A stretch of 64,000 nucleotides of DNA from Anaerolineae bacterium. Lineage in GTDB: Bacteria > Chloroflexota > JAHJIN01. Under the pieces are notes generated by a model. It saw only the letters and a list, made by a program, of their open reading frames with translations. It ran no database searches and was not told where the DNA came from. The stretch is from assembly GCA_034435155.1 (NCBI GenBank), contig DAOTYG010000324.1, forward strand, positions 13,622 through 77,621. The letters are read 5' to 3'. A program made the translations under genes and the position numbers. Position 1 is the first letter of the stretch. Every line of letters starts with the position of its first letter. Of the stretch, positions 1-62,805 are shown piece by piece.

Positions 1-595
1 TGATCACCGGCCCCACCAAGGACAGGGGCGGGATGATGGCGTTGACACGCGAACCGTCGGGCAGCCGGGCGTCCACGTAGGGCTGCGACTCGTCGCAACG
101 GCGGCCCAGGGGCGAGATGATGCGGTCAATGATGCGCATCACGTGCTCGTCGCTCTCGAAAACCACGTCCGTCTCGTAGAGCCGACCTTTCTGCTCGATG
201 TAGACCTGCCGGGGGCCATTGACCATGATCTCGGTGATGGTCTCGTCCTTGAGGAACGGCTCGATCGGCCCCAGGCCCAGGATCTCGGAGATGATCTCCT
301 CAAAGAGCCGATACCTTTCGGTGCGGCTGAGGGTGAGGTTCTCTTGCTCCAGGATGCTATCAAATAATCCCTGGACCAGCTTACGCACCTGGTCTGTTTG
401 GGTCAGGTCCATCTTGGGGTCCAGTTCTGCCATGAGCCGATTCTGAACCCGCGCTTTCAGGTCAAAGTAGGTATCCCGGGCCGGGGCCAGGACCGGGCGT
501 TTGAAGGCCAGACCAGTCCCCGCACTCCCGCTGGCCGGCGGCGGGGTGGCGCCGACAGGTGGTTTAACGCCTTCGATACGTTTCAGAAGTGACAT
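1..595 (-). CDS. cpaF: CpaF/TadA-family Tad pilus ATPase, second tandem paralog (N-terminal ~198 aa; 3' part lies outside window)
   Basis: Manual translation of minus strand from ATG at 593-595 gives MSLLKRIEGVKPPVGATPPP...DESQPYVDARLPDGSRVNAIIPPLSLVGPVI, ~85% identical to the N-terminus of the downstream cpaF (608..1999). Not in ORF track because it runs off the window edge. Confidence 0.8.
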   Translation of the reverse strand, partial: MSLLKRIEGVKPPVGATPPPASGSAGTGLAFKRPVLAPARDTYFDLKARVQNRLMAELDPKMDLTQTDQVRKLVQGLFDSILEQENLTLSRTERYRLFEEIISEILGLGPIEPFLKDETITEIMVNGPRQVYIEQKGRLYETDVVFESDEHVMRIIDRIISPLGRRCDESQPYVDARLPDGSRVNAIIPPLSLVGPVI

Positions 596-607
596 GGCGA
601 ACCTCCT

Positions 608-1999
608 CTACAGGCGCACGGAGACGCCAAAGATGTCCGGCGGCAGATAGATATTCGTAGCCTCGATGCGCTCGATGAACTTGGGGCGGATGCCGGTGGG
701 TTGCAATCGTCCGATCACCCGGCCGTCCTCAATGCCGGTCTGCTGGAAGCGAAAGAGGTCTTGCAGCACGATGACATCGCCTTCCATGCCCTGGACCTCG
801 GTTACGCTCACCACCTTGCGCGACCCATCACGGAACCGTTCCTCGTGGACGATCAGGTCAATAGCCCGGGAGACCTGTTCGCGGATGGCACGCACCGGCA
901 GGTCATAGCCGGCCATCAGCACCATGGTCTCCAACCGGGCCAGGGTGTCGCGGGGGCTGTTGGAGTGCAGGGTGGTCATGCTGCCGTCATGGCCGGTATT
1001 CATGGCTTGCAGCATGTCCAGGGCCTCTGGCCCCCGGCACTCGCCGACGATGATGCGGTCAGGGCGCATCCGCAGGCTGTTGATCACCAGGTCTCGGATG
1101 GTCACCTCGCCCTTGCCCTCGATGTTGGGGGGGCGGGATTCCAGGGTGACCACGTGTCTCTGGCGGAGTTGCAGTTCGGCGGCGTTCTCGATGGTGATGA
1201 TGCGCTCATCGCCGGGTATAAAGGAGGACAGGATGTTGAGCAGGGTGGTCTTGCCGGAACCACCGCCGCCGGAGACCACGATGTTGAGCCTGGCGATAAC
1301 GCAGGCTTTCAGGAACTCCACCAGCTCGGGCGTCAAGGTGCCGAAGCGGATCAGGTCCTCGATGGTGAGGGGGATCTTGGCGAACTTGCGGATGGTGATC
1401 ACCGGCCCCACCAGGGACAGGGGGGGGATAATGGCGTTGACGCGCGAACCGTCGGGCAGCCGGGCGTCCACGTAGGGCTGCGACTCGTCGCAACGGCGGC
1501 CCAGGGGCGAGACGATGCGGTCAATGATGCGCATCACGTGCTCGTCATTCTCAAAGGTGATATCGGTCTTGTAGACCCGACCTTTCTGCTCGATGTAGAC
1601 CTTGCGGGGGCCGTTGACCATGATCTCGGTGATGGTCTCGTCCTTGAGGAGCGGCTCGATCGGTCCCAGCCCCAGGATCTCGGCCACGATCTGTTCAAAG
1701 AGCCGATACCGTTCGGTGCGGCTGAGGGTGAGGTTCTCCTCTTCCAGGATGGCATCGAATAGCTCCTGGATGGTTTGTCGCACTTTTTCGGTCTGGGACA
1801 GGTCCATAGTCGGGTCCAGTTCTGAGATGAGCCGACTCTGGACCCGGGCTTTCAGGTCAACATAGGTATCCCGGGCCGGGGCCAGGACCGGGCGTTTGAA
1901 GGCCAGACCAGTCCCTCCACTTCCACTGCTGCCGCTGGCCGGTGGCGGGGTCGCACCAGCGGGCGGTTTGACGCTCTCGATGCGTTTTAGAAGTGACAT
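608..1999 (-). CDS. cpaF: CpaF/TadA type II/IV secretion ATPase of Tad (Flp) pilus
   Basis: 463 aa; Walker A VVSGGGGSGKTTLLN, conserved ESRPPNIEG, GECRG, HDGSMTTLHSN motifs of CpaF/VirB11-type ATPases; ATG with AAGGAG RBS. Confidence 0.9.
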   Translation of the reverse strand: MSLLKRIESVKPPAGATPPPASGSSGSGGTGLAFKRPVLAPARDTYVDLKARVQSRLISELDPTMDLSQTEKVRQTIQELFDAILEEENLTLSRTERYRLFEQIVAEILGLGPIEPLLKDETITEIMVNGPRKVYIEQKGRVYKTDITFENDEHVMRIIDRIVSPLGRRCDESQPYVDARLPDGSRVNAIIPPLSLVGPVITIRKFAKIPLTIEDLIRFGTLTPELVEFLKACVIARLNIVVSGGGGSGKTTLLNILSSFIPGDERIITIENAAELQLRQRHVVTLESRPPNIEGKGEVTIRDLVINSLRMRPDRIIVGECRGPEALDMLQAMNTGHDGSMTTLHSNSPRDTLARLETMVLMAGYDLPVRAIREQVSRAIDLIVHEERFRDGSRKVVSVTEVQGMEGDVIVLQDLFRFQQTGIEDGRVIGRLQPTGIRPKFIERIEATNIYLPPDIFGVSVRL

Positions 2000-2032
2000 G
2001 GCAGGTCTCCTTTGAATCTACTCTATCCCGAC

Positions 2033-3310
2033 TTACGAACGGCCGAAGAGTCGAAAACCGGCCTTGACCGGTTCCTCGGCGGGGTGAGGGGCACTTTCCG
2101 GCGTCGTGGTGGGTTCCATCACGAACAGGTAGGCCAATTCCAGGATCGCGCGGGATAGGGCGGTATCCCGATGACTGATCACAAAGGGGACACCGTGGTT
2201 CACTGCATGGGAAGCCAGCCGCCAGTCGGCCGGGATCTGGGCCGTCAGCCGATGCTGAATGCTCATCTCGATATCCCGGGCGCTGATCCCTCCCCGGCTA
2301 TCTACCCGATTCAACACCAGCAGCAGCCGGTCCATGGGGAAACCGACGGATTCCATCACCTCGAAGAATAGCTTGGCGTTCTTGATCGGCGGTATCTCTG
2401 GGCTGATCACCAGGACCAGCCGATCGCACAGGTCCATCAGGGCCAGCGTGATCTCGTGCAGGAAAGGCCAGGTATCCACAAAGATCAGGTCGAACCGTTG
2501 CTGCATGGCGGTGAGGATACGGCGCACGTGATCGGCGGTGATCAACTCGGCCATCTCCGGGCGCAAGGGGGCCAGCAGGACCCGGATGCCGGAAGAATGG
2601 GGCACCATGACATCTTCGACCAGCTCCGGGTCCAGGTCGTCAATCATGGATACCAGGTCCACGATGGTTCGCCCGGATTGCTGGTTCAAGAAGATGCCCA
2701 CATCTCCGAATTGCAGGTTACAATCCACCAGGGCCACTTTTTTGTTCGAGTGCAACCGGGCCCCGATCGCCAGGTTAGTGGCCAGGGTGGTACAGCCCAG
2801 CCCGCCTTGGGGGCTAAAGACGACGATGATCCGGCCCCCGGTCGGCGGGGCCACCGTCACGGTCGGTGCGACCACCTCGGCCGGGCCGGCCGGGGCTGCC
2901 ACGCGCCGTCCCCCACCAACCTGATAGACCCGCCGGATCGTGTGGATCAGGTCATCGCCGCTAAAGGGCTTGATCAAAAAGTCCCGTGCCCCGGCCAGCA
3001 TGGATCGCCGCAAATAGTCTGCCTCGCCCTGCACAGACATCATGATCAATTGCGTCTGGGGCACCTGCGCGGTGATGATCTCGGCCGCCGTGATCCCGTC
3101 CATGTCCGGCATATTGATATCCATCAGGATGATATCCGGCTGGAGTTCCCTGGCAGCCTCGATGGCCTCCTTGCCATTGACGGCTGTACCGACTACCTCG
3201 ATGTCTTTTTCAAAGTAGAGCAGTTTGCCCAGGTTTTCCCGGGTCTCACGGATGTCATCCACGATAAGCACGCGGATGGTCGTGGGCGCCGGGGTAGTAG
3301 AATCGCGCAT
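2033..3310 (-). CDS. cpaE: Response-regulator receiver domain fused to CpaE/MinD-like ATPase (Tad pilus assembly, TadZ/CpaE-like)
   Basis: N-terminal REC domain (RVLIVDD...DIILMDINMPDMDG...) followed by deviant Walker A P-loop GGLGCTTLATNLA typical of CpaE/ParA-fold proteins. Confidence 0.85.
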   Translation of the reverse strand: MRDSTTPAPTTIRVLIVDDIRETRENLGKLLYFEKDIEVVGTAVNGKEAIEAARELQPDIILMDINMPDMDGITAAEIITAQVPQTQLIMMSVQGEADYLRRSMLAGARDFLIKPFSGDDLIHTIRRVYQVGGGRRVAAPAGPAEVVAPTVTVAPPTGGRIIVVFSPQGGLGCTTLATNLAIGARLHSNKKVALVDCNLQFGDVGIFLNQQSGRTIVDLVSMIDDLDPELVEDVMVPHSSGIRVLLAPLRPEMAELITADHVRRILTAMQQRFDLIFVDTWPFLHEITLALMDLCDRLVLVISPEIPPIKNAKLFFEVMESVGFPMDRLLLVLNRVDSRGGISARDIEMSIQHRLTAQIPADWRLASHAVNHGVPFVISHRDTALSRAILELAYLFVMEPTTTPESAPHPAEEPVKAGFRLFGRS

Positions 3311-3331
3311 AGTGCTTTCTCTTTGCGCCCC

Positions 3332-4090
3332 TTACGGTGCGACGACCGGCGGGCGCGGGTATTTGTACAGGTCAATGATATAATCCAGATGCACGGCCTC
3401 GATGGTGCCCAGGTCAACGAGGTTGTGGTCTGTCGCTGGCCGCAAGGCCAGGTCCACCGTGCCGTTTTCGCGGGCCCATTTGAGGATCAGGGCATCTTGC
3501 CGGCTGACCTGAAAGATCATCACCGAAGCCTGGCCTTGCTCGGTTTCGCCACCGGCGGCTACCCAGCGGCCGATGTGCAATACCATGACATCTTGCAGGG
3601 TTAACTGGGTGGTGCGACGCCCGCCAGTCTCACCCTCTTTGGCCGGCACATCTAGAGAGAGCAACAGGTCCACCGTGTCTCCCGGCCGGATGGCCCCGGC
3701 CACGCCACTGATGTCGGCGATGGGAAAGGCTACTGCCACCATGCCTTCTGGCAGCAGATAGGGAATACCATATAGCGTGGCCGTGATAGCCAGCATATGG
3801 CTCAGGATCGGCTCATCCCGATAGATACGCTGGGTGGTGATCTTGCCCACCACTTCGTCCAGACGCCGCAGCGCATCCGGTGGCGCCGACTCGGCCAGGA
3901 AGGGCCGCATAGTAACCCAGGGGGCCTGAATTACAGTGCGCTCCTGGATGTCTTGAACCGCCACCACCAGGTCTACCTTCGCCTCCTCCTTGACTTCTCC
4001 CCGGGGTTGGGCCAGGATGAAGAATACACCAGCAAACACGATCACGCCGAGCAAGATCCCCAGGATGATGAATATACGACCTCGTTTCAT
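3332..4090 (-). CDS. cpaB: CpaB/RcpC Flp pilus assembly protein
   Basis: N-terminal TM anchor, SAF-like region and C-terminal RcpC-like sequence; position upstream of cpaE-cpaF; GGAGG RBS. Confidence 0.8.
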   Translation of the reverse strand: MKRGRIFIILGILLGVIVFAGVFFILAQPRGEVKEEAKVDLVVAVQDIQERTVIQAPWVTMRPFLAESAPPDALRRLDEVVGKITTQRIYRDEPILSHMLAITATLYGIPYLLPEGMVAVAFPIADISGVAGAIRPGDTVDLLLSLDVPAKEGETGGRRTTQLTLQDVMVLHIGRWVAAGGETEQGQASVMIFQVSRQDALILKWARENGTVDLALRPATDHNLVDLGTIEAVHLDYIIDLYKYPRPPVVAP

Positions 4091-4144
4091 GTGTCCTCCT
4101 CAAAATCAGCTCCAACGGCTATCGTTCTGATCACCGACACACAT

Positions 4145-4173
4145 ATTTTACCTCGAAACGGCCAATTTTACAA
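4145..4173 (-). promoter_or_regulatory. Putative sigma-70 promoter (TTGTAA-17-TAAAAT on minus strand) for cpaB-cpaE-cpaF operon
   Basis: Reverse complement of 4145-4173 reads TTGTAAAATTGGCCGTTTCGAGGTAAAAT; ~50 nt upstream of cpaB start. Confidence 0.5.
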
Positions 4174-4369
4174 TAGTACCATAGTCCGATTTGCAGGAGG
4201 TAGAGGGTAACTACAGCCAGGTTGCTCAAAGGCGGTCTGTGACCGCAGTCGTGGACAGAAGCATGGCTGTACGAAACGGAAATCGGAGCACAGGCTGGTA
4301 GTTACGGTAGAGGGGGCATAATAAGAGGGGGTTGCAGCAGCATACTACCGTTACAACCCCCTAAATAAT

Positions 4370-4449
4370 GGACTTTGGACAATCCTGGAGTCGAGCCTTC
4401 AGGCGGGCCATATCTTGACCGGCTAAAGCCTCTACTCCTTGTGGTGTGC
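4370..4449. repeat. MITE-like structured repeat, family GGACTTTGGACAA (truncated copy lacking right TIR)
   Basis: Shares ~85% identity with 4494-4587, 22302-22406 and 36435-36526 elements. Confidence 0.8.
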
Positions 4450-4493
4450 GAATCGTTGTTCAAGGTCCAAGCCGTTACAATCCCCTTAATTAC

Positions 4494-4587
4494 TGGACTT
4501 TGGACAATTCTGGAATCGAGCCTTCAGGTGGGCCATATCTTGACCGGTTCAAGCCTCTTCCTCCTTGTGGCGTGGTTGTCCAAAGTT
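4494..4587. repeat. MITE-like element (~95 bp) with terminal inverted repeats GGACTTTGGACAA / TTGTCCAAAGT and internal AGTAGAGGCTTTAGCCGG hairpin
   Basis: TIRs and internal palindrome read directly. Confidence 0.85.
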
Positions 4588-4653
4588 ATAACCACACCCT
4601 AATATCTGGGGTACTTCAGGGGGGCAACTTTCCATCTACTGGTGCTGGTTTAC

Positions 4654-7600
4654 TTATGGCGTGTAGGACCTCGTGATCAGGGGCAGATAGACACTGAATC
4701 CACCCTGTACTGTCACCACGAAGGGGCCAAAGGTGTTATTCGTATAGCTCCTCTCCGGGATAGTCGGATAGCGATCCGGGTTGACCTGGGCGTAGAGCGT
4801 GTATGTGCCGGTGTTAGTAAAAATATAGGTGAACTGGACGGTCTGGTACGCGCCGGGGGCCAGGCCATATTGCACAGCCGAGCAGCCGACGTTACTGTAT
4901 TCGCCGGCACCGGGGGCATGGGCCGGGTTCACATACAGATCATAGTAGAACGAATAGCAACAGGACGTGGTCACCGGTCCATCGCCCAGGTTGGCCAGGG
5001 TTATGCGAACGGTGGTCGGCTGGTCTTTGGCCGGCTGCGCCGGTACAGTGCTGATCCCGGTCACTGCCAGATCTGGCCGGCGCAGGATATTGGTGTCAGT
5101 GGCAGTATTGTTAGTCTCGTTTTCTGGCTCCGCACAGCCGATAACGACCTGTACGGTCAGGTCCGCCGGCCAGTTCTCTACCAACTGGGCTGGCGCCGGG
5201 TATTCCAGGACCAGAGTCGCCTCGCCGGTGCCACCCACCGGCACCGCTGACACCTCCCGGCGATATTTATGGTTGCCGAGGGCTGTCCAACCGCCGCTTT
5301 TATAGGTGGCGCTGGGATGCAGCGTGGCCGTGATGGCCACCCCGGTGGCGATCTTGTTGCCCTCATTGGCGTACCGGATCGTGTATGTCAGGGTCTGGCA
5401 CAAGGTGGTCGCCGTAACCCCATCGGAAAAATAGATAAAGCGCAGGTCCGGGGCCAGGGTGATCACCTCATTAATGTCCGTGGCGGTGTTGTTGTCCAGG
5501 TTGGTCTCGCCGGTGGCGCGGATGGTCACGGTGTTGGTGATGGGGCCGGGGCTGGCCGTCTCGTTGACCTGCACGGTGATGGTCACGGTGGCGTGCTGGC
5601 CGGCCGGCAGGTCGTTCACGGTGCAGGTGTAGGTCTGGCCGCTCACCAGGTGCCAGCCTGCGCTGCCCTGGAAGGTGGTCTGGGCCGGGATGGTCTCGGT
5701 GAGGACGATGTGCCGGGCCTGGCCGGAGCCGGCGTTGGTGTAGGTGATGGTGTAGGTGAGGATGTCGCCGGCCGAGACGTAGGTCGTGCCGTCGGTCTTG
5801 GTCACTGCCAGGTCTGGGGGCAGGGAGATGATGGGATCCTCGTCCCAGGCGACGTTATCGCCGGGGGCGATGTCCGGCCCGTGGACCTCGTCATAGCTGA
5901 TCTCGACCCGGTTCAGCAGCGTGCCCTCCGCGTCATCGTTGACGCGCAGGGTGAACGTCGTGCTCCCATGACCGCCGTTGCCCGGCAAGATGTCCACTGT
6001 CCGGCTGTAGCGATTGCCGCCCTGGGGTGTCCAGCCGGTACCGATGTACTGGGCCGGCCCGGTAAAGACCTCCGTGAGCACGACGTTGGCGGCGTCTGAG
6101 CGGCCGACGTTGGTGTAAGTGAGCGTATATGTGACGATCTGGCCGGGATGGACCTGATTCAGGCCATTTGACTTGGTTACCTGCAAGTCTACCCAGCAGA
6201 GGAGGGTAGTGTCGTGGGTGGCGTTGTTGTCCTCGCGGGGGTCAGGGCCGTGCGAGCCGTCGTCCCCGATGTAGGCCCAGTTGATCAGCCTATCTGGCGC
6301 GGTAGCAGTGTCGGTGAGGACCCGCACGACAAAGTGAATGGTGTTACTGGCCCCGGGTCCCAGGCTATCAATCGTGGTGGTGTAGGTGCGGCCGTCGGTG
6401 GAGTTGAAAGGCCGGTCGCTGGAGACAAAGATGGTATGAGCGGGGATCACATCGGTGATCACGATGTTCGTCGCTGTCTCATCGCCGCTATTGGCATAAT
6501 AAAGGGTATAGGTGACGAGCTGCCCCAGGGAGACCTCGAGCCGGTCGTCGCTCTTGCTGATACCCAGCTCTGGCGGCGGTGGAGGTGGTGGTCCCCAGGT
6601 GTAATCGAAAACGCCAGAGCCGGCCGTACCGGCGTGCAGCGTCTGCGTCACATAGTCGTCAATGGCCAGGGAATAGACGTACCAGTTCTTCAGTTGGGCG
6701 TTCAATGGATACCACTTGTCTGGGGGAGTGTAACGTTCATCGCCATAGAACAGCACCCCCCCGCCCCCGGTCCCGGCCAGGACGATGGTGGGGGTGATGG
6801 GGTTGACCACCAGGGCATAGACCGGGTTGCCGCCGGCGGACCAGTCTTGCTGCCAGGTATCACTCAAGACTTTGCGGATGTAGATGCCGCCGCCGCTCTC
6901 GCCGACGCCGGCAAAGACCGTGTGCTCGATGTCCACGGCCAGGGCGTTGATGTAGAGAGCCTCGCCGCTCAGGCCGGGGTTGAAGGCCGTCCAGGTCTCG
7001 CCAGCGTCCGTGCTGCGGTAGATGCCATTGTGGTGGGTCCCGGCATAGACGATGGTGGGGGTAAGGGGGTCAATGGCCAGGGCGCGCACGGTATAGTCCG
7101 CGCCGCTGGGCTTGATCCGCTTGTAGACCCAAAGGGCGCCACGGTTGGTGGTCTTGTAGACGCCGCTGCCCGTCCCGGCATAGACGATGGTGGGCGATAC
7201 TGGATCAATGACCAGGGCGTACACATCCAGGGCCTGGGTGGTGGTCAGGCCATTGCTGGCCAGGGTCCAGGTGACGGCATTGGTGGTGGTGTAGATGCCG
7301 TCGTTGGTGCCGGCATAGACCGGGAAGCCGCTGGGGTGGGTAACCGCCAGGGCCCGCACCTCCCGGTCGCCGATGGCCCCGCTGCGGCGTTCCCAGCTTG
7401 CGCCGCCGTCCTGGCTGCGGTATAGGCCGCCGCCCTCGGTGCCGGCATAGACCCGCCAGTCGTAGGCCGGGTTCACGGCGATGGCCCGGACGATGTGGGC
7501 ACTGAGCAGCTTCTCGGGTGGGGTGCCGTTGGCGGTGCTCCAGCTCAGTCCCGCATCCGTAGTGCGGTAGACGCCCCGGCCGGCGGTGCCGGCGTACAGG

Positions 7601-8568
7601 GTGCCGGTCGCGGTGCGGAGCAAGGTGCGAATGCGGCGCGCATTGCTATGAGCCTGGCCGGGTTCCAGGCCCGCGCTGCGCGCGGTCCACGCCGAACCGG
7701 TCCACATGTAGACGCCGTCTTCCGTGCCGGCATAGAGGGTGCTGCCGTCCAGGACCAGGGCGCGCACATCCAGGGCGTCGCCGGCCAGGCCCGCGCTTTT
7801 GGCGGTCCAGGTGGTGGTGATGGCGGTGTTGCACTCGTAGACACCGTAGCCGCCTGTGCCCGCGTATAGGATGCTGCCCTGGGCGATCAGGGCGCGCACA
7901 GAGACCTGGTTGGGCAGTCCATCGCGCATCGCAGCCCAATCGGTGCCGGCCCAGCGGTAGACGCCCCAGTAAGGGGCCACGTTCTCGCAGCCGGCGTAGA
8001 AGGTGCCGTTGGCCACAGCCAGGGCCCGGGTATCGAAAAACGGGGTGCCCATTTTGGTCCAGGAACCGCTGGTGCTCAGAGTATGCGTGTAGACACCTAT
8101 TGGTGTCCCCGCATACAGGATGTTCGCCTCAATGCGCAGGGTGCGCACGGTATTGCTGCCAAGACCCTGACTGCTGATGGGGTACCATTTCCATGGGTGG
8201 TCGGGGTCGGTGTTGTCATACACGCATTTCCACACCCCGCCCTCGTTGGTTCCGGCGTAGACGTTATCAGCACTATCAATGGCCAGGCACAGGACATCCC
8301 GTTTCTCAGTGGAGAACTGGTAATTTTCCAGGGTCCAGAGCAGATTGGAGCCGGAGAAGGTGCCGTGGAATACCCAACCCAGGCGGGTGCCGGCCCAGAG
8401 ATTGCCGGCCGAGTCCACCGCCAGGGCCTGGATCTCGCCGCCCTCCGGGCCGTGCGAGGTATGCCAATACGGCCCGGCATAGACGAGCAGGGCCAGGCTC
8501 AGGAGCAAGAGGATCATCAGGCTCAGCGCGAGCGAGAGCCATAATCCGCGCTGGCGATGGTTGGTCAT
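4654..8568 (-). CDS. Giant (1304 aa) membrane-anchored surface protein: N-terminal signal anchor, ~14 BNR/Asp-box beta-propeller repeats (YAGTxxGVY...SxDxGxSW), poly-Pro linker, ~5 DUF11 repeats, C-terminal CARDB-like domain
   Basis: Periodic LYAGTxxGVY and S-D-G-TW motifs, PPPPPPP linker, repeated DLxVTKS DUF11-like motifs, C-terminal CARDB-like TNTGTYTLYAQVNPD...NNT; ATG at 8566-8568 with GGAGG RBS. Confidence 0.8.
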   Translation of the reverse strand: MTNHRQRGLWLSLALSLMILLLLSLALLVYAGPYWHTSHGPEGGEIQALAVDSAGNLWAGTRLGWVFHGTFSGSNLLWTLENYQFSTEKRDVLCLAIDSADNVYAGTNEGGVWKCVYDNTDPDHPWKWYPISSQGLGSNTVRTLRIEANILYAGTPIGVYTHTLSTSGSWTKMGTPFFDTRALAVANGTFYAGCENVAPYWGVYRWAGTDWAAMRDGLPNQVSVRALIAQGSILYAGTGGYGVYECNTAITTTWTAKSAGLAGDALDVRALVLDGSTLYAGTEDGVYMWTGSAWTARSAGLEPGQAHSNARRIRTLLRTATGTLYAGTAGRGVYRTTDAGLSWSTANGTPPEKLLSAHIVRAIAVNPAYDWRVYAGTEGGGLYRSQDGGASWERRSGAIGDREVRALAVTHPSGFPVYAGTNDGIYTTTNAVTWTLASNGLTTTQALDVYALVIDPVSPTIVYAGTGSGVYKTTNRGALWVYKRIKPSGADYTVRALAIDPLTPTIVYAGTHHNGIYRSTDAGETWTAFNPGLSGEALYINALAVDIEHTVFAGVGESGGGIYIRKVLSDTWQQDWSAGGNPVYALVVNPITPTIVLAGTGGGGVLFYGDERYTPPDKWYPLNAQLKNWYVYSLAIDDYVTQTLHAGTAGSGVFDYTWGPPPPPPPELGISKSDDRLEVSLGQLVTYTLYYANSGDETATNIVITDVIPAHTIFVSSDRPFNSTDGRTYTTTIDSLGPGASNTIHFVVRVLTDTATAPDRLINWAYIGDDGSHGPDPREDNNATHDTTLLCWVDLQVTKSNGLNQVHPGQIVTYTLTYTNVGRSDAANVVLTEVFTGPAQYIGTGWTPQGGNRYSRTVDILPGNGGHGSTTFTLRVNDDAEGTLLNRVEISYDEVHGPDIAPGDNVAWDEDPIISLPPDLAVTKTDGTTYVSAGDILTYTITYTNAGSGQARHIVLTETIPAQTTFQGSAGWHLVSGQTYTCTVNDLPAGQHATVTITVQVNETASPGPITNTVTIRATGETNLDNNTATDINEVITLAPDLRFIYFSDGVTATTLCQTLTYTIRYANEGNKIATGVAITATLHPSATYKSGGWTALGNHKYRREVSAVPVGGTGEATLVLEYPAPAQLVENWPADLTVQVVIGCAEPENETNNTATDTNILRRPDLAVTGISTVPAQPAKDQPTTVRITLANLGDGPVTTSCCYSFYYDLYVNPAHAPGAGEYSNVGCSAVQYGLAPGAYQTVQFTYIFTNTGTYTLYAQVNPDRYPTIPERSYTNNTFGPFVVTVQGGFSVYLPLITRSYTP

Positions 8569-8574
8569 TGGCCT

Positions 8575-9035
8575 TCCTCCTCGTATATTTGCTCGCGCGG
8601 GGTCTGCCCCTTTTGCTCGCGCGGGGTCTGCGACCCCGCGCCCGGCGGCTTCTGTGCTCGCGCGGGGTCTGCGACCCCGCGCCCGGCGGCGGGTGACACA
8701 CCCGCCGCGAGCTGTGCTCGCGCGGGGTCTGCGACCCCGCGCCCGGCGGCTTCTGTGCTCACGCGGGGTCTGCGACCCAAGTGCTCACGCGGGGTCTGCG
8801 ACCCCGCGCCCGGCGGCTTCTGTGCTCACGCGGGGTCTGCGACCCCGCGCCCGGCGGCATCTTGTGCTCACGCGGGGTCTGCGACCCCGCGCCCGGCGGC
8901 TTCTGTGCTCACGCGGGGTCTGCGACCCCACACCCAGCGGCGGGTGACACACCCGCCGCGAGCACAGTTGTTCCCGCCGCGAGCACAGTTGTTCCTGTGC
9001 CATGTGGGGTCTGCGACCCCGCGCCCGGTGGCGGG
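8575..9035. repeat. Tandem array (~9 copies, ~41-bp period) of hairpin repeat TGCTC[GA]CGCGGGGTCTGCGACCCCGCGCCCGGCGGC (10-bp perfect stem GCGCGGGGTC/GACCCCGCGC)
   Basis: Directly visible periodic repeats between the surface-protein start and the TadG-PQQ stop; inter-repeat segments are short (6-25 nt) and recurrent, not unique. Confidence 0.9.
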
Positions 9036-9263
9036 TGACACTCCCTACCGTCGCCGCTGCGAGCACAGTTGTTTGAACCGGCGCGAGAGCAGTTGGCGCG
9101 GCGTCCCCATATAAAGTCGTCGGCGCTGGAACCCAGGCCGACGACTCGCTATGCCTTCTTGGAACCCGAAAACCGGCGCGCTCCACCCTGCCGCAGGTTT
9201 TTGAACCTGGGGCAGGATTAAAACAAGGTGCGACGCACGCTCGTGCGTCGCACCTGGATGCGG

Positions 9264-11210
9264 CTACCAAAGCAGCTTGCTCTCCTGGTTGGCCGGGTTC
9301 AGGTCCACGCCATAGACCAGGTTGTCGCAGCCGCCGAAGTAGACCCAGTTGTTAGCCGCTACCTCCATGTTGGAGTGCAGGTCGGCGTCCAACTGATATT
9401 GCTGATCCGACTGACCGCCGACTTTGGAGATGGCCTCAAAGTAGCCACGCCCCTGGTCGCCATAGACGCTGCCGGAGTGGGTCTGGCAGCCAAAATAGAC
9501 ATAGTCGGTGGCCAGGGCCGGCGAGCAGTGCCAGGCGGCCCGGTTTGGATAGGTGGTATCTGGTTGCTTCATCCCCAGGGTGATGGACCACACCAGGCTG
9601 GCCGAGGTGCCCTGGTCCAACAGCTTGTAGGCGGTGGCCTTTTCGCTGCTAAAGTAGACGTAGCGATTACCGCCCACCTCTTCTATCGCCGGGGTGCAGG
9701 AGAGCGCGTAGTTGGCCGCGTAGCTCCACTTCACCGCCCCCGTCTCTTTGTTGACGGCATATAGCTTGCCGTCCCGGCAGCCGATGTACAGGGTGTCCCC
9801 ATAGATGACCGGCGAGCCATCGAATCCCTCAAAGTTGTTGCTGGAGCTGATCTTGCTGCTCCACTTGACCTGACCGTTGGAATAGAAGGCATAGACCATA
9901 CCGTACGTGGCGCTGCCGCCGCTGCCGCAGCCGTCTTTGGGCTGGCTGCAGGCCATGTAGATGATGTCCGAACGACCACCCAGGCCGTGGTTGATGGCGT
10001 CCTGGTCTGTGCGAGTTTCTACCCAGGGGTTGACGTTGGTCCCGCCGAAGAGCTGGACCCGGCCGCTGGACCAGGACCCGCCAGAGACCGGCGTGCCGTC
10101 ATCCACGTCAAAGGCATACAGGTAACCGCCCCGGGAACCCACATAGACCACTTCGTTGTCACTGGAAAAGGCCGGCCGGGAGTCCACGTAGCTCTCGCCA
10201 TAGACGCCCTTGTGATAGCCCGGGGCCTGGATGTTCTTGGACCAGATCCGCTGCCCGGTGCTGCCGTCCAGGCAGTAAAGGTATCCCTTGCTGGAGGTGC
10301 CCCCATCGCCGGGGACGGTGATGAAATAGATCAGGGTTTTGCCGTTCCGGTTCAGCACCCGCACCTGCCCCTGGACCATGGGCCAGCGGTTGTTTTCGCC
10401 GGTGCTGGTGCTTTCCTCCGTCCACCCGTAGGTCGTGCCGGTCCCGTCTGTGGCCGGGCGGAACCGCCACCAGGCGTGGGTTTTCTTGCTGCCGTCCTGT
10501 TTGCCCAGGGCGTTCAGGCAGTAAAGGTAGCCGTCACGGCAGCCCACGTAGACCACCTCCCGGTTGCCGGCATACGGGTCCACGTAGTAGAACGGCGTGG
10601 CGTGCACGTCACCGCCGTAGGTGCGGAAGGTCCAGGTGACCTTGAAGATGCCCCGATAGCCGGCGGCGGCGGCGGTCACATCCACGTTATGAAATCCCAG
10701 GACACCGGCAAAGAACATCGAGGTGTTGCGCCGGGCATCCACCCGCACGCACATCTCCTTGGCGATGTCCTGGGCCTGAGAGATGGCATCCTGGTAAAAG
10801 ACCGTCACCGAGACCTCATCCCCGCCGATGGTGGTCGTATACCTGTAGTTCGTGCCAGAGCCGCCGTCCCAGTCGGGGTCAAAATCCGTGGTGGAATAGG
10901 ACTGTGGCACCGAGCCGGAATCCAACCCGATGTTGCGGGCGTAGCAGCCCAGGGCCTCCCGGGTGGCGTTCTTGACGGCTTCCCACTTTTCGGCGGCGGT
11001 GTCCACCGGGGCCGGGGTGCGGCGCGCGCCGGCCATCGTCGCCGCGTCCACGATGCCCTGCAGGTCCCGCTTGGTGTAGTACATATAGCCCACATCGGTG
11101 ACCAGCACCAGGAACCCGATCAGGGCCACGATGAGAAAGGCAAAGAGCACCACGTTCTGCCCGGCCTCTCGCTGCGATTGCTTGCACGTCCTCTGTTGTG
11201 GCTTGTTCAT
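9264..11210 (-). CDS. TadG/TadE-like pseudopilin N-terminal domain fused to PQQ-repeat beta-propeller (start revised to ATG 11208-11210)
   Basis: MNKPQQ...VVLFAFLIVALIGFLVLVTDVGYMYYTKRDLQG is a TadE/TadG-type N-terminus; downstream repeated PQQ-like blades (VVYVGCRDGYLYCL, VVYVGSRGGYLYAFD, LYIGCRDGKLYAVNKETGAVKW); AAGGAGGG RBS before the internal ATG. Confidence 0.75.
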   Translation of the reverse strand: MNKPQQRTCKQSQREAGQNVVLFAFLIVALIGFLVLVTDVGYMYYTKRDLQGIVDAATMAGARRTPAPVDTAAEKWEAVKNATREALGCYARNIGLDSGSVPQSYSTTDFDPDWDGGSGTNYRYTTTIGGDEVSVTVFYQDAISQAQDIAKEMCVRVDARRNTSMFFAGVLGFHNVDVTAAAAGYRGIFKVTWTFRTYGGDVHATPFYYVDPYAGNREVVYVGCRDGYLYCLNALGKQDGSKKTHAWWRFRPATDGTGTTYGWTEESTSTGENNRWPMVQGQVRVLNRNGKTLIYFITVPGDGGTSSKGYLYCLDGSTGQRIWSKNIQAPGYHKGVYGESYVDSRPAFSSDNEVVYVGSRGGYLYAFDVDDGTPVSGGSWSSGRVQLFGGTNVNPWVETRTDQDAINHGLGGRSDIIYMACSQPKDGCGSGGSATYGMVYAFYSNGQVKWSSKISSSNNFEGFDGSPVIYGDTLYIGCRDGKLYAVNKETGAVKWSYAANYALSCTPAIEEVGGNRYVYFSSEKATAYKLLDQGTSASLVWSITLGMKQPDTTYPNRAAWHCSPALATDYVYFGCQTHSGSVYGDQGRGYFEAISKVGGQSDQQYQLDADLHSNMEVAANNWVYFGGCDNLVYGVDLNPANQESKLLW

Positions 11211-11435
11211 CTCGATTCCCTCCTTCCGAAAATAACCCCCTCGCTCGCGGCGGTGACCACGTCTACGACCCCCGGCCCAGGCCGGACTGGGTGGCACAAG
11301 CCGTAGGGTATGCCAGCCGCCGTGCGAAGCACGCGGGGTCGCAGACCCCACGCGAGCACACCGGCGTATTTTCGTAAAATCGTGGGGGCCTTTCCAGGCT
11401 GCCCGCAGGCTAGAAAGCCTGCGCTACGCTGCGAC

Positions 11436-11960
11436 CTAGGGGCGCATGATCTCGATCCGCTGCCCCTGCAAGATGATCTCGTCGCCGGTGATCAGGTTGA
11501 TCATCGGCAGAAACACCGGCTGCCGATACGTAACCCGCACGCCGATATAGCCAAAAGTCTGGACCAACGTACACCGGCGGCCGTTCGTGAAATTGTATGG
11601 GCTACCCTGGTTTCCGTCCTTGTCCAGCACATCCTGATAGCTACCGATGCCCCCATCAGCCGTCGTCTCATAGATGGTAATGGCCTGGATGTTCTCCTTG
11701 CCCAGCCAGCCCAGGGCCTTGACGACAGCCTGGTAGATCTCCGTATTGTGATGTCCTGTCCCACTCAGCTTGCAGTATTCCTCCACCACGGCCTGGCGTG
11801 CGCCGGCGGCCGCGGCCTCGGTGAGGGTGATCTGGATCCCAAAGATGATGCCGAACATCATCAAGCCCATGACCATCAGGACGATCATGGGGAGCAGGAT
11901 GGCAAACTCCACCATGCTCTGGCCGTGGGGCCGATGCTGGTGGCGAGCATCATCAGACAT
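11436..11960 (-). CDS. TadE-like Flp pilus assembly protein
   Basis: N-terminus ...GQSMVEFAILLPMIVLMVMGLMMFGIIFG matches TadE (PF07811-like) signature; small size; within Tad cluster. Confidence 0.75.
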   Translation of the reverse strand: MSDDARHQHRPHGQSMVEFAILLPMIVLMVMGLMMFGIIFGIQITLTEAAAAGARQAVVEEYCKLSGTGHHNTEIYQAVVKALGWLGKENIQAITIYETTADGGIGSYQDVLDKDGNQGSPYNFTNGRRCTLVQTFGYIGVRVTYRQPVFLPMINLITGDEIILQGQRIEIMRP

Positions 11961-12077
11961 GGACACTATACCCTTTCCCTGTACCCTCCCGCAGGTTAGA
12001 AAACAACTGCCAACCGAGGTAGCCGGTCATTGGGGCGTAATCTGGTCCCCTCCAACCTGCGGCAGGGTGGGCACCAG

Positions 12078-12622
12078 TTATTCGATCCGCCGGCTTTCCC
12101 GCACCCGGAGCTGGATCGTGTCGCTGGACTTGAACACAAACCCATCGCCCGTGGGTACCGGATACCACACCGGCACGATGACCGGCTGGGCATAGACGAT
12201 CTCCACGCCCAGGCCGGTATTGGATTGCCGCAGGTAATTGGTGAAATTGCCGCTGATCAAGGCCCCGGTGGCCGGGTTGATCTGGTCTTTGATGCTGGAG
12301 ATCGTCCCATCTGCGTTGGGCTGGTAAATGGTGATGGACTGGACCTGGCCCATGCCCAGCCAGCTCATGTTCTGCACAATGGCCTGGTAAATCTCGGTGT
12401 TCTGGTGGTCGTTTACTGGATATTCCGCATAGTTCACCACCGAGCCGGCCCGTGCTCCGGCGGCGGCCGCGTTCGCCAGGGTGACCTGGGCGTTAAAGAT
12501 GAACCCAAAGGCAAAGATGCCCATCACGATCAACAGGACCAGGGGCAGGATCAACGCGAACTCGAGCATCTGCTGCCCGTGTGATTGATGGACACCGTGG
12601 AGGAAGCGCTGGCATCCGCTCA
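12078..12622 (-). CDS. TadE-like Flp pilus assembly protein (second paralog; start at internal ATG 12620-12622)
   Basis: ...GQQMLEFALILPLVLLIVMGIFAFGFIF TadE-like N-terminus; same REP-containing upstream motif as the neighbouring TadE gene. Confidence 0.7.
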
Positions 12623-12640
12623 TTGGCTCTGAATTGTCCT

Positions 12641-12680
12641 TTCCCTGCTGCCTGCCCTGAACCCTCCCGCAGGTTAGAAA
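12641..12680. repeat. REP-like motif CTGCCTGCCCTGAACCCTCCCGCAGGTTAGAAAGGG (family CCCTCCCGCAGG)
   Basis: Same ~35-mer at 26401-26437; related copies at 11975-11998, 24155-24190, 34473-34502, 34649-34682, 53435-53481, 54470-54492, 62458-62475. Confidence 0.85.
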
Positions 12681-13002
12681 GGGACTCCGGGGATTGGGGT
12701 AATGACTAACAACAATCCAATTTGCAGGTATATTATATATCATATTGGTGTAACGAGCAATAGGAAAATAGTACCAGGGGACTGGTCTCTTGAAGCCATT
12801 TTTCAGGCCGGGGCGGGTTTTACTACCGGACACTTTTCAATCACGAATGATGCGAATGGACGAATGGCACGAATTGGTATAAAAAACATTCGTGAGATTT
12901 GCCAGATTCGGGTCATTCGTGATGAAACTTGCGAAAATGTCCAGTAGTGAAGGGCGGGTCAGGAGGTAACCGCACGTCAATGGGGCCTGCCGCGAATGGT
13001 CC

Positions 13003-15785: not shown

Positions 15786-15832
15786 CACGTGTTGCGTGTT
15801 ACGTGTTCCGTGTTTCGTGTTGCGTGTTACGT
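15786..15832. repeat. Heptanucleotide repeat (GTGTTNC)x6
   Basis: Immediately upstream of the Mo-oxidoreductase start codon (minus strand). Confidence 0.9.
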
Positions 15833-15972
15833 GGCCGGGGTGATTATAGCACCGGTGTTGTAGGGTTGTCAAACCGGCCTTGACCCCGACGCAGAAATGT
15901 GGCATGATCGGGTGGGAGAACACGGATGCCGGGAAAACAGCGGATGAGCGGGGACCGGTTGGGAGCTGAACC

Positions 15973-26570: not shown

Positions 26571-27197
26571 TCAGGTCATCTTGACCACGATGTCGCTGAT
26601 GATGTTGGCAGCCTCGTCGCCCCGGTCGGCGGCGTTGCTCAGGTGGCGGTAGACCTCGCGCATCTTGAGCATGTAGACAATATGATGCACATCCTCCGGT
26701 CCATGAAACAGGTCCGCAATGGCCTGGCGGTAGAGGTGTTCAGCCCGGTTCTCCAGTTCCTTAGCCCGCGTGGCATGGATCAGGGCCAGATTGGGCCGCT
26801 CCTGGAGGTGTTGTACGGCCAGATAGATCTCCTCCGCCGCCTTGTTCAGCACGCTGGTGAACTCGCGCAGGTGGTCATCCGGCGTGATCTCCAGGATGTG
26901 CATCTCATAGACCGTCGTATGGGCATAGTCAATAACGTCGTCAATGGCCCGGCTCAGGGCGAACAGGTCTTCCCGGTCAATCGGCGTGACGAAGGTGCGG
27001 TTCAGCTCGTCAATGAGGATGCGCCGTTGCTCATCGGCCTCTTTTTCCAGCCGGCTGACCCGTTTGCCGCAGGCCTCGTTGGCGGCCTGCATGTATTCTT
27101 CCAGCGCAGCCATCCCCTCGGCCGTCAGCCGGGCGTGTTCTGCCAGGATCTTGAGGAAATTGCTCTGGCGCGGTTTGAAAAAGTCTCGCACTCCCAT
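26571..27197 (-). CDS. DUF47 (PhoU-like) phosphate-transport regulator family protein
   Basis: MGVRDFFKPRQSNFLKILAEH... TIGR00153/DUF47-like; adjacent to PiT transporter. ORF-track N-terminal extension is an artefact of the octamer repeat. Confidence 0.8.
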   Translation of the reverse strand: MGVRDFFKPRQSNFLKILAEHARLTAEGMAALEEYMQAANEACGKRVSRLEKEADEQRRILIDELNRTFVTPIDREDLFALSRAIDDVIDYAHTTVYEMHILEITPDDHLREFTSVLNKAAEEIYLAVQHLQERPNLALIHATRAKELENRAEHLYRQAIADLFHGPEDVHHIVYMLKMREVYRHLSNAADRGDEAANIISDIVVKMT

Positions 27198-27210
27198 GGC
27201 TCCCCCAATC

Positions 27211-27362
27211 GAATGGACGAATGGACGAATGGATGAATAGACGAATGGACGAATAGACGAATGGACGAATAGACGAATGGACGAATGGACGAATGGATGA
27301 ATAGACGAATGGACGAATAGACGAATGGACGAATAGACGAATGGACGAATAGACGAATGGAC
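27211..27362. repeat. Octanucleotide microsatellite (GAATRGAC)x19 followed by an inverted GCATTCGTCCATTC hairpin
   Basis: Perfect 8-bp periodicity; the ORF track's DUF47 N-terminal extension (HSSIRPFVYSSIRLFV x n) is its translation. Confidence 0.95.
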
Positions 27363-27408
27363 GAGCAGCTCAACAGTCGCGCATTCGTCCATTCATAGAT
27401 TCGTAAAT

Positions 27409-42329: not shown

Positions 42330-42411
42330 GATTGGCAAATGGCAGATTGCAAATGGCAAATTGCAGATTGCAGATTGCAAATTGCAGATTGCAGATTGCA
42401 GATTGCAAATT
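42330..42411. repeat. Heptanucleotide tandem repeat (GATTGCA/AATGGCA)x11
   Basis: 7-bp periodicity between giant membrane gene stop and four-helix-bundle start. Confidence 0.95.
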
Positions 42412-42426: not shown

Positions 42427-42828
42427 ATGACGTATGAGGAGTGGGAGCGGCAGGTGGCGGGGGAGATCAAGGCGGATGCGTTGTGGCAGATGGATGTGTA
42501 TCGGCTGGCGTTGTATCTCTACGACCTGGCCTGGGATGATTGCGAGACGCTAATGAGGGATGCGCGGGGCAGGGCGATAGTGGAGCAACTTATCCGCAGC
42601 GCTGGATCGGTGGCGGCCAACATAGAGGAAGGGTTTGGCCGGGGTTTTGGCAAGGGATACGCCTACTTTCTGCGCATCTCTCTCGGCTCGGCCCGCGAGA
42701 CCCGGGGCTGGTACTATCGAAGCCGCCGTTTGTTGCCCCCGGCCGTGATCAAGCATCGCCTGGACCTGCTGAGCCAGATCGTCGCGATCCTCGTCACGGC
42801 CGCGCACCAACAGAGACAGCGCAAGTAG
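42427..42828 (+). CDS. Four-helix-bundle protein (TIGR02436 / 23S rRNA intervening-sequence protein family, Avd-like)
   Basis: Motifs SVAANIEEGFGRG, YFLRISLGSARETRGWYY typical of PF05635; start at ATG 42427 with GGAAGGAGGGG RBS, since the ORF-track N-terminus is repeat-derived. Confidence 0.75.
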   Translation: MTYEEWERQVAGEIKADALWQMDVYRLALYLYDLAWDDCETLMRDARGRAIVEQLIRSAGSVAANIEEGFGRGFGKGYAYFLRISLGSARETRGWYYRSRRLLPPAVIKHRLDLLSQIVAILVTAAHQQRQRK

Positions 42829-42920
42829 CAGATTGCGGATTGCAGATTGCAGATTGCAGATTGCGGATTGCAGATTGCAATTCGCAATTTGCAATTTGCA
42901 ATTCGCAATTCGCAATTTGC
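42828..42920. repeat. Heptanucleotide repeats (GCAGATT)x7 then (GCAATTY)x6 forming a long imperfect palindrome
   Basis: 7-bp periodicity; second half is a near reverse complement of the first half. Confidence 0.95.
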
Positions 42921-46460: not shown

Positions 46461-46472
46461 CACACCTCCATT

Positions 46473-46555
46473 TCGGAATGCGGAATGCGGATTTCGGAAT
46501 GCGGAATGCGGAATGGGGGGCCATACGCCGCATTCCGCATTCTATATTCTACATT
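46473..46555. repeat. (CGGAATG)x6 heptamer tract plus inverted GCATTCCGCATTC arm forming a hairpin
   Basis: Between AGPS-like gene stop and glpD start. Confidence 0.9.
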
Positions 46556-48289: not shown

Positions 48290-48440
48290 CACTGCTCGCG
48301 GCGGGTCTGCCAGGCCCACCCAGTCCGGCCTGGGCCGGGGGCCTGACTGGTTGACCCGCCGCCGGCGCGGGGTGGCACACCCCGCGCGAGCATGGTCGCG
48401 CAGCATATTTTCGTTCTACGGGGTGCGCCCCGCGCGTGTG
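48290..48440. repeat. Inverted-orientation copies of the composite hairpin REP seen at 62466-62805
   Basis: Reverse complement of 62528-62610 matches 48299-48385 with few mismatches. Confidence 0.8.
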
Positions 48441-54465: not shown

Positions 54466-54590
54466 GCAGTGACTGCCTGCCCTCCCGCAGGTTGGGGTAC
54501 AATGGGCCAGACCAGAAGGTATTGCCCCTCTAACCTATTACAAACTCCTTGCAAACCCCCCGCTTTTGGTATAGAATAAGACCGGCTATT

Positions 54591-54766
54591 GCGGAATGGG
54601 GAATGCGGAATGCGGAGTGCGGAATGGGGAATGGAGAATGCGGATTTCGGAATCTGATTACGCAGTCTGCCATTTGCCATTTGCCATGTGCCATTTGCAA
54701 TTTGCAATCTGCAATTTGCAATCTGCAATCTGCAATCCACAATCCGCAATCTGCCATCCGCAATCC
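54591..54766. repeat. Heptanucleotide repeats (GGAATGS)x~9 then (TGCCATT/TGCAATC)x14 upstream of pdxS
   Basis: Two adjacent 7-bp-period tracts. Confidence 0.95.
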
Positions 54767-62465: not shown

Positions 62466-62805
62466 CCCGCAAGTCAAAGATTCCTGCTCGCGCGGGGTCT
62501 GCGACCCCGCGCCGGCGGCTATCTTGTGCTCGCGCAGGGTGTGCCACCCCGCGCTGGTGGGCGGCGGGTCACCCAGTCAGGCCTGGGCCTGGCAGACCCG
62601 CCGCGAGCGAGGGTCTTATGCTCGCGCGGGGTCTGCGACCCCGCGCTGGTGAGTGGCGGGTCACCCAGTCAGGCCTGGGCCTGGCAGACCCGCCGCGAGC
62701 GAGGGGCACACCCTCTTATGCTCGCGCGGGGTCTGCGACCCCGCGCTGGTGAGTGGCGGGTCACCCAGTCAGGCCTGGGCCTGGCAGACCCGCCGCGAGC
62801 AGTGG
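62466..62805. repeat. Tandem array (3.5 copies, ~95-bp composite unit) of the same GCGCGGGGTCTGCGACCCCGCGC hairpin plus a second GGCGGGTCACCCAGTCAGGCCTGGGCCTGGCAGACCCGCC hairpin
   Basis: Near-identical 95-bp units between darA and the CBS gene. Confidence 0.9.

Follow-up and report, generated by a model that had tools for sequence, protein, structure and literature searches.

A tandem pair of cpaF motor genes in the Tad pilus operon of an uncultured Anaerolineae lineage

Results

Two cpaF genes lie side by side in one Tad operon

A stretch of 64,000 nucleotides from an Anaerolineae bacterium (contig DAOTYG010000324.1; the whole stretch is hereafter called the window, and positions are numbered along it) opens within a tight adherence (Tad) pilus operon in which the gene for the motor ATPase CpaF occurs twice. 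At its left end the window has genes on the minus strand only. The upstream copy, cpaF-1 (F1), is complete at 608-1999, and the downstream copy, cpaF-2 (F2), occupies 1-595, where it is clipped by the left window edge. A sequence-only reading of the window had proposed two tandem cpaF paralogs in a single Tad operon, and this observation was confirmed in full. The relevant features are as follows.

1..595, minus strand: cpaF-2 (F2), codons 1-198 of 460, from its translation; Pfam T2SSE (PF00437) E 2.6e-12; the remainder lies past the left edge
275..469, minus strand: part of F2 coding for the three-helix bundle (3HB), F2 residues ~43-107; strongest divergence between the paralogs
596..607, minus strand: F1-F2 spacer AGGAGGTTCGCC, 12 nt, by direct reading; GGAGG ribosome-binding site (RBS) for F2 at 602-606
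608..1999, minus strand: cpaF-1 (F1), complete open reading frame (ORF) of 463 aa, CpaF/TadA-type ATPase; Pfam T2SSE E 1e-61
611..769, minus strand: C-terminal 53 residues of F1 (411-463), comprising beta14, beta15 and terminal helices by AlphaFold2 (AF2) secondary structure; second region of high divergence
891..1093, minus strand: 203-nt tract identical in F1 and F2, F1 gene nt 907-1109, covering Walker B, His box and P349/R350
1247..1273, minus strand: F1 Walker A SGGGGSGKT with derived T246G, from homolog comparison
1443..1512, minus strand: 70-nt run identical in F1 and F2, F1 gene nt 488-557, from the analysis of identity runs; the F1-to-F2 switch of the related contig L083 falls in or next to it
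1670..1864, minus strand: part of F1 coding for the 3HB, residues 46-110, from AF2 helices and alignment to Caulobacter crescentus CpaF
2000..2032, minus strand: cpaE-cpaF-1 spacer, by direct reading; carries the AGGAG RBS of F1
2033..3310, minus strand: receiver domain plus CpaE/TadZ-type ParA-like ATPase, 425 aa; Pfam Response_reg E 4e-28, AAA_31, CbiA
3332..4090, minus strand: CpaB/RcpC, 252 aa; Pfam RcpC E 2e-20, SAF

F1 runs from an ATG at 1997-1999 to a TAG stop at 608-610, and F2 begins with an ATG at 593-595 from which the frame stays open down to base 2. Each copy has its own start and RBS, as had been claimed, the sites being AGGAG at 2007-2011 for F1 and GGAGG at 602-606 for F2. The last ~14 nt of the cpaE-cpaF-1 spacer resemble the F1-F2 spacer, which suggests that the duplicated unit was an RBS together with its gene. 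The F1-F2 spacer is too short for a terminator or a promoter, and we therefore infer that F1 and F2 are co-transcribed. Further upstream on the same strand lie genes for a 1304-aa DUF11/BNR surface protein and a TadG-like beta-propeller protein, and two TadE-like genes, giving the order tadE-tadE-tadG-like-DUF11 protein-cpaB-cpaE-cpaF1-cpaF2-tadB-tadC.

The second copy is complete and the pair is genuine

The 198-aa F2 fragment aligns to the N-terminus of F1 with 170/201 identities (85%; BLASTP, E 4e-112), in agreement with the ~85% given in the sequence-only reading. That reading had looked to a complete second cpaF followed by tadB and tadC beyond the window, and had named a truncated or frameshifted F2 as the outcome that would undermine it. 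Exact-protein look-ups gave an 83.6-kb ENA contig (L001) and two Joint Genome Institute (JGI) contigs (L002 and L171). F2 is an intact 460-aa ORF in L001 (11405-12787), L002 and L171, and in all three it is followed by two T2SSF genes, tadB and tadC. Over their full lengths F1 and F2 share 410 of 462 residues (89%) and 89.5% of their nucleotides. Two 399-aa proteins (P0007 and P0009) that were considered as truncated forms of F1 result from miscalled start codons; both contigs carry the complete ORF of 463 codons, uninterrupted.

The tandem pair is thus found in four sequences, namely the window, L001, L002 and L171. The window matches L002 and L171 at 100% identity across the shared 5.4-5.8 kb, and L001 at 99.63% across 12 kb. 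An assembler might conceivably have joined two strain alleles of a single cpaF in tandem, given that the data are metagenomic, that identical runs of 70 and 203 nt inside the locus may mislead assemblers, and that one related contig (L083) holds a single hybrid gene. However, the F1 stop, the 12-nt RBS spacer and the F2 start form a unique sequence that is beyond the reach of single-copy templates, and at least two slightly different assembled sequences carry this same junction, which argues that it is no assembly artefact, as the sequence-only reading had maintained. The junction is present in L001, L002, L171 and the window, including two variants that are 99.6% identical, and the record name of L001 states 31.8x coverage. 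Moreover, an F2-like conversion tract within the F1 gene of a further contig (L170) implies an F2 donor in that genome. A chance joining of alleles is barely credible on this evidence; comparison of the assemblies points to a real tandem duplication, and misassembly is very unlikely.

Both copies have the full CpaF architecture

F1 matches the C. crescentus CpaF structures (PDB 9e24 and 8rkd) with a phmmer E of 1e-129, in an alignment that covers residues 20-445. The minimum CpaF architecture consists of a 3HB, an N-terminal domain (NTD) and a C-terminal ATPase domain, with the 3HB of the C. crescentus protein beginning at about residue 80 (PMC12019362). All of these parts are present. In the AF2 model of F1, residues 1-44 are disordered (predicted local distance difference test score, pLDDT, <50), helices span 46-60, 70-87 and 94-109, and alpha/beta domains come after them. 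Domain boundaries are taken from the CpaF alignment together with this model, which is of moderate confidence (mean pLDDT just 66).

The catalytic motifs of the two copies are nearly indistinguishable. The Asp box (DERIITIE), Walker B (DRIIVGE), His box (GHDGSMTTLH), arginine finger R310 (equivalent to C. crescentus R347) and extended pore loop are identical in F1 and F2. Walker A reads GG[G/T]GSGKTT, and residue 246 within it is the sole difference among the catalytic motifs. In the set compared, F1 is the only sequence with GGGGSGKT; GGTGSGKT occurs in F2 and in 112 of 116 homologs, of which 115 have T at the aligned position. F1 also carries an SGS insertion in its disordered N-terminus.

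According to a recent preprint, retraction by C. crescentus CpaF specifically needs the N-terminus of alpha11 (P386/R387) and the beta13-beta14 turn (bioRxiv 10.64898/2026.02.24.707734). F1 and F2 have the corresponding P349/R350 and GMEGD turn (G404-D408) in identical form, and both keep the alpha5-loop 8 region. Both copies retain the N-terminal domain and the C-terminal motif, with no C-terminal truncation. Thus, each has what that preprint describes for a dual-orientation CpaF, including P386/R387, the turn and an undegenerate C-terminal motif. In F2 the turn is followed directly by two substitutions in beta14, Q413T and L415I, with more further on. The neighbouring genes are likewise those expected for CpaF/TadA, with tadB/tadC, cpaE/tadZ and cpaB/rcpC identified from Pfam and from the gene order in L001, L002 and L171. 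By all of these sequence-level characters F1 and F2 belong to the CpaF/TadA family, and both are predicted to encode a catalytically competent, full-architecture CpaF, with an intrinsically disordered region (IDR), 3HB, NTD and ATPase domain.

Relatives carry a single cpaF

A tblastn survey for cpaF-like matches covered 167 other loci, of which 80 come from species-representative genomes, 80 are metagenomic and 7 belong to the nearest metagenomic relatives; 111 of the loci have at least 1.5 kb on both flanks of cpaF. A second copy was found in 0 of the 167. One locus (L076, the chromosome of an Abditibacterium sp. metagenome-assembled genome, 6001-7713) gave an extra, weak N-terminal match that overlaps the same gene and represents no second gene. 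This extra match, of 35% identity over 142 aa (query residues 71-212), directly abuts the main match, and could be an internal repeat of the N-terminal domain or an extended N-terminus.

The closest named homologs are annotated as Chloroflexota or Anaerolineae. CpaF of the nearest species representatives is only 65-74% identical. In the nearest lineages it is 85-89% identical and encoded by one cpaF, in the gene order cpaB-REC/cpaE-cpaF-tadB-tadC (REC denoting the receiver domain). Four related lineages share this order, and the syntenic relatives L084-L089 all have a single cpaF. A metagenome scan with F2 yielded, among the matches listed, relatives of 53-73% identity and no more strains of this species; it contributed 80 single-copy loci.

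The published record agrees. A survey of type IV filaments recognizes PilB/PilT and PilT/PilU as the only system-specific ATPase duplications (PMC6668835), and Tad pili are described as single-motor systems (PMC6920026). The sequence-only reading had taken a single CpaF to be canonical for Tad systems, a view that the 167 single-copy loci and these two papers, neither of which names a Tad ATPase duplication, support. Within the literature library searched, we found no paper on a tandem or second cpaF/tadA inside one tad operon. On these comparisons the duplication is rare and lineage-specific, and a single CpaF is the norm.

The copies have diverged at their periphery under relaxed purifying selection

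The synonymous (dS) and non-synonymous (dN) divergences between F1 and F2 are 0.265 and 0.067, respectively, for a dN/dS of 0.25. When either copy is compared with L084, L085 and L087, dS is 0.64-1.23, dN 0.069-0.094 and dN/dS 0.07-0.13; among those three relatives the corresponding ranges are 0.66-1.01, 0.054-0.071 and 0.06-0.08. For the two paralogs the non-synonymous excess reaches significance (Fisher p = 1e-5 to 3e-3). No segment along the gene has a dN/dS >1, the maximum being 0.55 in the C-terminal region.

This excess is unevenly distributed. In the 3HB (F1 46-110), F1 and F2 differ at 17 of 65 residues (dN/dS 0.26, dS 0.59), as against 3 of 65 and a dN/dS of 0.01-0.04 in orthologs (L085 or L084 versus L087). 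At the C-terminus (F1 411-463), 11 of 53 residues differ and dN/dS is 0.55, compared with 0.06-0.12 in orthologs. Conversely, dS between F1 and F2 falls to 0.05 in the catalytic core (residues 300-377), where orthologs show 0.49-0.63.

Polarization against three near outgroups assigns 20 derived amino-acid changes to F1 and 18 to F2, with 15 ambiguous. The split is even in both halves of the protein (14/12 and 6/6), and polarized non-synonymous site changes number 24 in F1 and 27 in F2. Because change is symmetric and the ORFs are intact in every contig, neither copy behaves like a decaying pseudogene; both are under purifying but relaxed selection. The copies do differ in how unusual their changes are. 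When both were compared with 116 homologs of 72-88% identity, with a residue called rare if present in <5% of the family, F2 had a rare residue where F1 has a common one at 8 sites in the 3HB and 7 at the C-terminus, and the reverse held at only 2 and 1 sites (15 versus 3, p = 0.005). F2 is therefore the more atypical copy at family-conserved 3HB and C-terminal sites. Its atypical substitutions, which include A106S, V105I, Q103E, E79G, T76L, Q413T, I423F and L432I, as well as L117F in the NTD, are mostly conservative. A test for co-evolution detected no lineage-specific acceleration in TadB, TadC, CpaB or CpaE.

Could this divergence reflect a division of labor like that of PilB and PilT, in which one copy drives extension and the other retraction, each using one face of its hexamer on TadB/TadC? 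The sequence-only reading had advanced this hypothesis. Excess change does fall on two faces, the N-terminal one with the 3HB and the C-terminal one with the last ~50 residues, and both are proposed platform contacts in the extension and retraction orientations. The uneven tally of atypical residues (15 in F2, 3 in F1, p = 0.005), the Q413T and L415I changes of F2 beta14 just after the beta13-beta14 turn and the unique P-loop of F1 also speak in its favor. However, the copies are 89% identical members of one subfamily with no domain loss, and both keep all residues linked to retraction (P349/R350, the GMEGD turn, the alpha5-loop 8 region) as well as the pore loop and arginine finger. The atypical residues of F2 fall on both faces, not on one face per copy, and near-outgroup polarization is symmetric (20 versus 18 overall; 14/12 and 6/6 by halves) with mostly conservative substitutions. 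Dual-motor systems are marked by distinct, anciently diverged subfamilies, whereas F1 and F2 are sisters relative to all other homologs. Neither copy resembles a retraction motor that lacks the variable N-terminal domain and bears an exclusive C-face motif, and no related lineage has retained two motors. The hypothesis therefore fares poorly, and separate extension and retraction motors are distinctly unlikely here.

Probable gene conversion, a hybrid gene and the age of the duplication

The longest identical run between F1 and F2 spans 203 nt and includes 67 consecutive identical third-codon positions (permutation p ~1e-4). Identity of this extent indicates that the core run is a gene-conversion tract, and with conversion in the core the mean dS underestimates the age of the duplication. 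The dS in the 3HB (0.59) is near the distance to neighboring lineages. The duplication is younger than the split from the nearest single-copy lineages.

Two related contigs bear on its history. L170, whose flanks are 95-97% identical, has a full-length F1 with an F1-type 3' end, interrupted by 7 consecutive F2-type sites at nt 1110-1156; this patch is most simply explained by conversion from an F2 in that genome. The contig is uninformative on F2 itself, ending 100 nt past the F1 stop within a hairpin element resembling repetitive extragenic palindromic (REP) sequences. A full F1 with an F2-derived patch implies that both gene types predate the strain split, and hence that the duplication is older than the sampled strain diversity.

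L083, from a different JGI metagenome, has flanks that are 97.6-98.4% identical to L001 and TadB and TadC that differ by 0-1 residue, and carries a single cpaF. In a three-way alignment with 165 variable sites, this gene is F1-like at 83, F2-like at 67, private at 11 and ambiguous at 4. F1-type sites cluster on the 5' side of about nt 540 and F2-type sites on the 3' side, with the switch between nt ~505 and ~570. Such an F1-5'/F2-3' hybrid would have arisen either by recombinational deletion between direct repeats or by assembly collapse. We also considered the hybrid as the ancestral single-copy state and rejected this option; its 5' part has F1-derived and its 3' part F2-derived changes, and L170 already has a full F1.

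A related scheme would make a single hybrid-type gene ancestral and derive the pair from Campbell-type, single-crossover integration of a circularized foreign cpaF composed of an F2-type 5' part and an F1-type 3' part. The mosaic geometry fits, with F1 joining a native 5' part to a foreign 3' part and F2 the converse. The scheme nevertheless requires a 1.4-kb circle of exactly one gene plus 12 nt, the postulated foreign-type single-copy gene is absent among the best 120 homologs, and L170, although its flanks are more diverged than those of L083, already has the F1-type 3' end and the F2 patch. We consider such an integration highly improbable.

A second explanation is that the duplication is redundant and effectively neutral, with constraint relaxed and the copies drifting until recombination or mutation removes one of them. 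The duplication is limited to one species-level population, the sister strain represented by L083 has a single hybrid gene with essentially identical TadB/TadC, dN/dS is raised ~2-3 fold yet nowhere exceeds 1, and the partner proteins are not co-evolving, all of which favors this explanation. It accounts less readily for two ORFs that are intact in all contigs despite a dS of 0.27 for the whole gene and as much as 0.59 within the 3HB, for a dN/dS of 0.25 that is far below 1 with symmetric change rather than decay of one copy, and for acceleration that is concentrated in a domain nearly invariant among orthologs instead of being even. Redundancy is the main rival to the interpretation that we develop below, and we regard it as possible rather than probable.

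Other features of the operon and window

The CpaE/TadZ homolog has a full-length receiver domain with residues resembling an acidic pocket (VDD..., DINMPDMDG), which suggests phosphorylation control of pilus assembly. This receiver-CpaE fusion is kept in all close relatives examined (L083-L089, L170 and L171). The region 4654-11351 on the minus strand encodes the 1304-aa protein, with BNR/Sortilin-like repeats, DUF11 and CARDB, and the TadG-like protein with a PQQ-type beta-propeller; the DUF11 protein varies from 1304 to 1687 aa among relatives. These two proteins may be pilus-associated adhesin or tip proteins. Two genes for TadE-like pseudopilins lie at 11436-11966 and ~12078-12560, minus strand. 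We recognized no Flp-type pilin and no prepilin peptidase (CpaA/TadV) in the operon, over window positions 1-12833; such genes may be encoded in other parts of the genome, or may be too small or too diverged to stand out.

A GC-rich palindromic hairpin, GCGCGGGGTCTGCGACCCCGCGC, is clustered at 8614-9024, where 8 copies with a spacing of ~41-67 nt separate the DUF11 and TadG-like genes. It occurs also at 11331-11353, 48365-48387 and 62490-62800, the last being an array with a 100-nt period near 62.5 kb, and just past the F1 stop at the contig end of L170. The hairpin resembles an element of the REP or bacterial interspersed mosaic element (BIME) type rather than an array of clustered regularly interspaced short palindromic repeats (CRISPR). 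Between cpaB and the DUF11 gene, a 560-nt gap contains two direct copies of a different element (4348-4574; period of ~125 nt, 90% identical). Part of this element recurs in inverted orientation beyond the window, at 13887-13981 of L001, where the spacer from tadB to tadC is unusually long at 334 nt; the corresponding spacer of L083 measures just 24 nt.

Many short arrays of tandem units, each of 7 or 8 nt, are scattered through the window at 15787-15833, 27210-27364, 42330-42411, 42820-42920, 46470-46515 and 54590-54765, with units such as GATTGCA x11.6, GCAATCT x15, CGAATGGA x19, TGCGGAA x9 and ACGTGTT x6.7. The array at 27210-27364 is inside a predicted ORF (26571-27392) whose product contains a repetitive SSIRPFVH-like peptide. 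A 1913-aa ORF at 36585-42326 on the plus strand has a zinc-ribbon-like motif at its start (CPQCGHEN...CPDCG). When the window was scanned for Rfam families and tRNAs, there were no hits.

Discussion

A proposed pair of isoforms of one motor

We lean towards interpreting the pair as a moderately old, unstable duplication that provides two isoforms of one bifunctional motor, with early sub-functionalization possible. An RBS-cpaF unit would have been duplicated in tandem within one Chloroflexota lineage, after its split from the nearest sampled relatives and before its strains diverged. F1 and F2 would be co-transcribed in the Tad operon and translated in similar amounts, each from its own RBS. 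Both proteins would be active, and their hexamers, whether separate or mixed, would dock on the one TadB/TadC platform. Gene conversion would hold the catalytic and inter-subunit core identical, while constraint on the platform-facing periphery would have loosened or shifted. The array would be recombinationally unstable, and might be reduced to a single F1::F2 hybrid. Predictions place the 3HB in contact with N-terminal helices of the platform proteins that are less conserved (PMC12019362), and the C-terminal face has been proposed as the docking surface on the retraction side (bioRxiv 10.64898/2026.02.24.707734). Since divergence is situated in precisely these two parts, docking behavior could differ between the copies.

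Several observations weigh against the two-isoform interpretation. TadB and TadC show no acceleration, such that the peripheral divergence has no visible co-evolving partner and might be due to plain relaxation. The L083 hybrid, if real, implies that a single gene is enough, in keeping with redundancy no less than with isoforms. The duplication occurs in one species-level population only, with long-term retention demonstrated only to a dS of ~0.3-0.6, and synonymous changes are not reliably polarized (45 of 80 ambiguous).

The pair might also represent an early stage of motor specialization. F1 and F2 might form an alternating F1(3)F2(3) heterohexamer that matches the TadB/TadC ring, or hexamers of F1 and of F2 might have begun to split by orientation or speed. 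In the latter version, an F2 hexamer with an altered 3HB and C-terminal face could operate beside an F1 hexamer with an altered P-loop. We judge such early-stage specialization, in either form, to be unlikely.

Comparison with known systems

By analogy, the F1/F2 pair can be set beside several known arrangements. PilB and PilT of type IVa pili are anciently diverged and have different domain sets, whereas F1 and F2 are 89% identical, share the same architecture and have lost neither docking face. What the two pairs have in common is that their members are paralogous PilT/VirB11-like hexameric ATPases that serve one platform and originated by duplication of a motor gene (PMC6668835, PMC6920026). 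In PilT, an AIRNLIRE motif is required for retraction (bioRxiv 10.64898/2026.02.24.707734). PilT/PilU, the second recognized system-specific motor duplication (PMC6668835), in which a similar accessory motor has been kept, is the nearest precedent for a two-isoform arrangement. That pair, however, is far more diverged, acts in retraction only and extends across many genera, while F1/F2 is young and confined to one lineage.

Within the Tad machine itself, TadB and TadC (CpaG and CpaH) are encoded by adjacent homologous genes and their products form one heteromeric ring (PMC6668835, PMC12019362). They are ancient, occur in all Tad systems and have been explained by the fission of a gene that had duplicated internally, unlike the recent cpaF pair. 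TadB/TadC are nonetheless a within-machine precedent for paralogs that co-assemble, although an F1/F2 heteromer is conjecture. More than one CpaF per genome is also found in Sinorhizobium meliloti, where cpaF1 and cpaF2 appear to lie at separate loci on the chromosome and pSymA (PMC10934763), presumably each serving as the motor of its own system; here both copies share one operon and one pair of platform genes. The C. crescentus protein, from a Tad (type IVc) pilus, remains the closest structural reference (PDB 9e24, 8rkd), with the same family, IDR/3HB/NTD/ATPase architecture, motifs and partners (CpaB, CpaE/TadZ, TadB, TadC). The single bifunctional CpaF/TadA differs from the present case, in which there are two adjacent copies, F1 with GGGGSGKT and F2 with atypical 3HB and C-terminal residues.

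Implications

What is new here is a Tad operon with a duplicated motor gene; the family, the architecture and the partners were already known. The pair is a compact case of a duplicated homo-oligomer subunit, with its core homogenized, its periphery changing faster and the two genes collapsible to a hybrid. Among the proposals for how the Tad motor works are a nucleotide-switch model, a rotary mechanism and, as the latest, motor inversion (PMC11300603, PMC12019362, bioRxiv 10.64898/2026.02.24.707734). With slightly different motors sharing one platform, this natural operon offers a defined set of ~50 substitutions, clustered in the two proposed docking regions and the P-loop, which might be moved into a tractable CpaF. 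The duplication is confined to one lineage, that of an uncultured organism, and for now it is an evolutionary curiosity rather than a new mechanism. If either form of specialization proved true, however, this operon would encode the first natural two-motor Tad machine and would constitute a natural test of the motor-inversion model.

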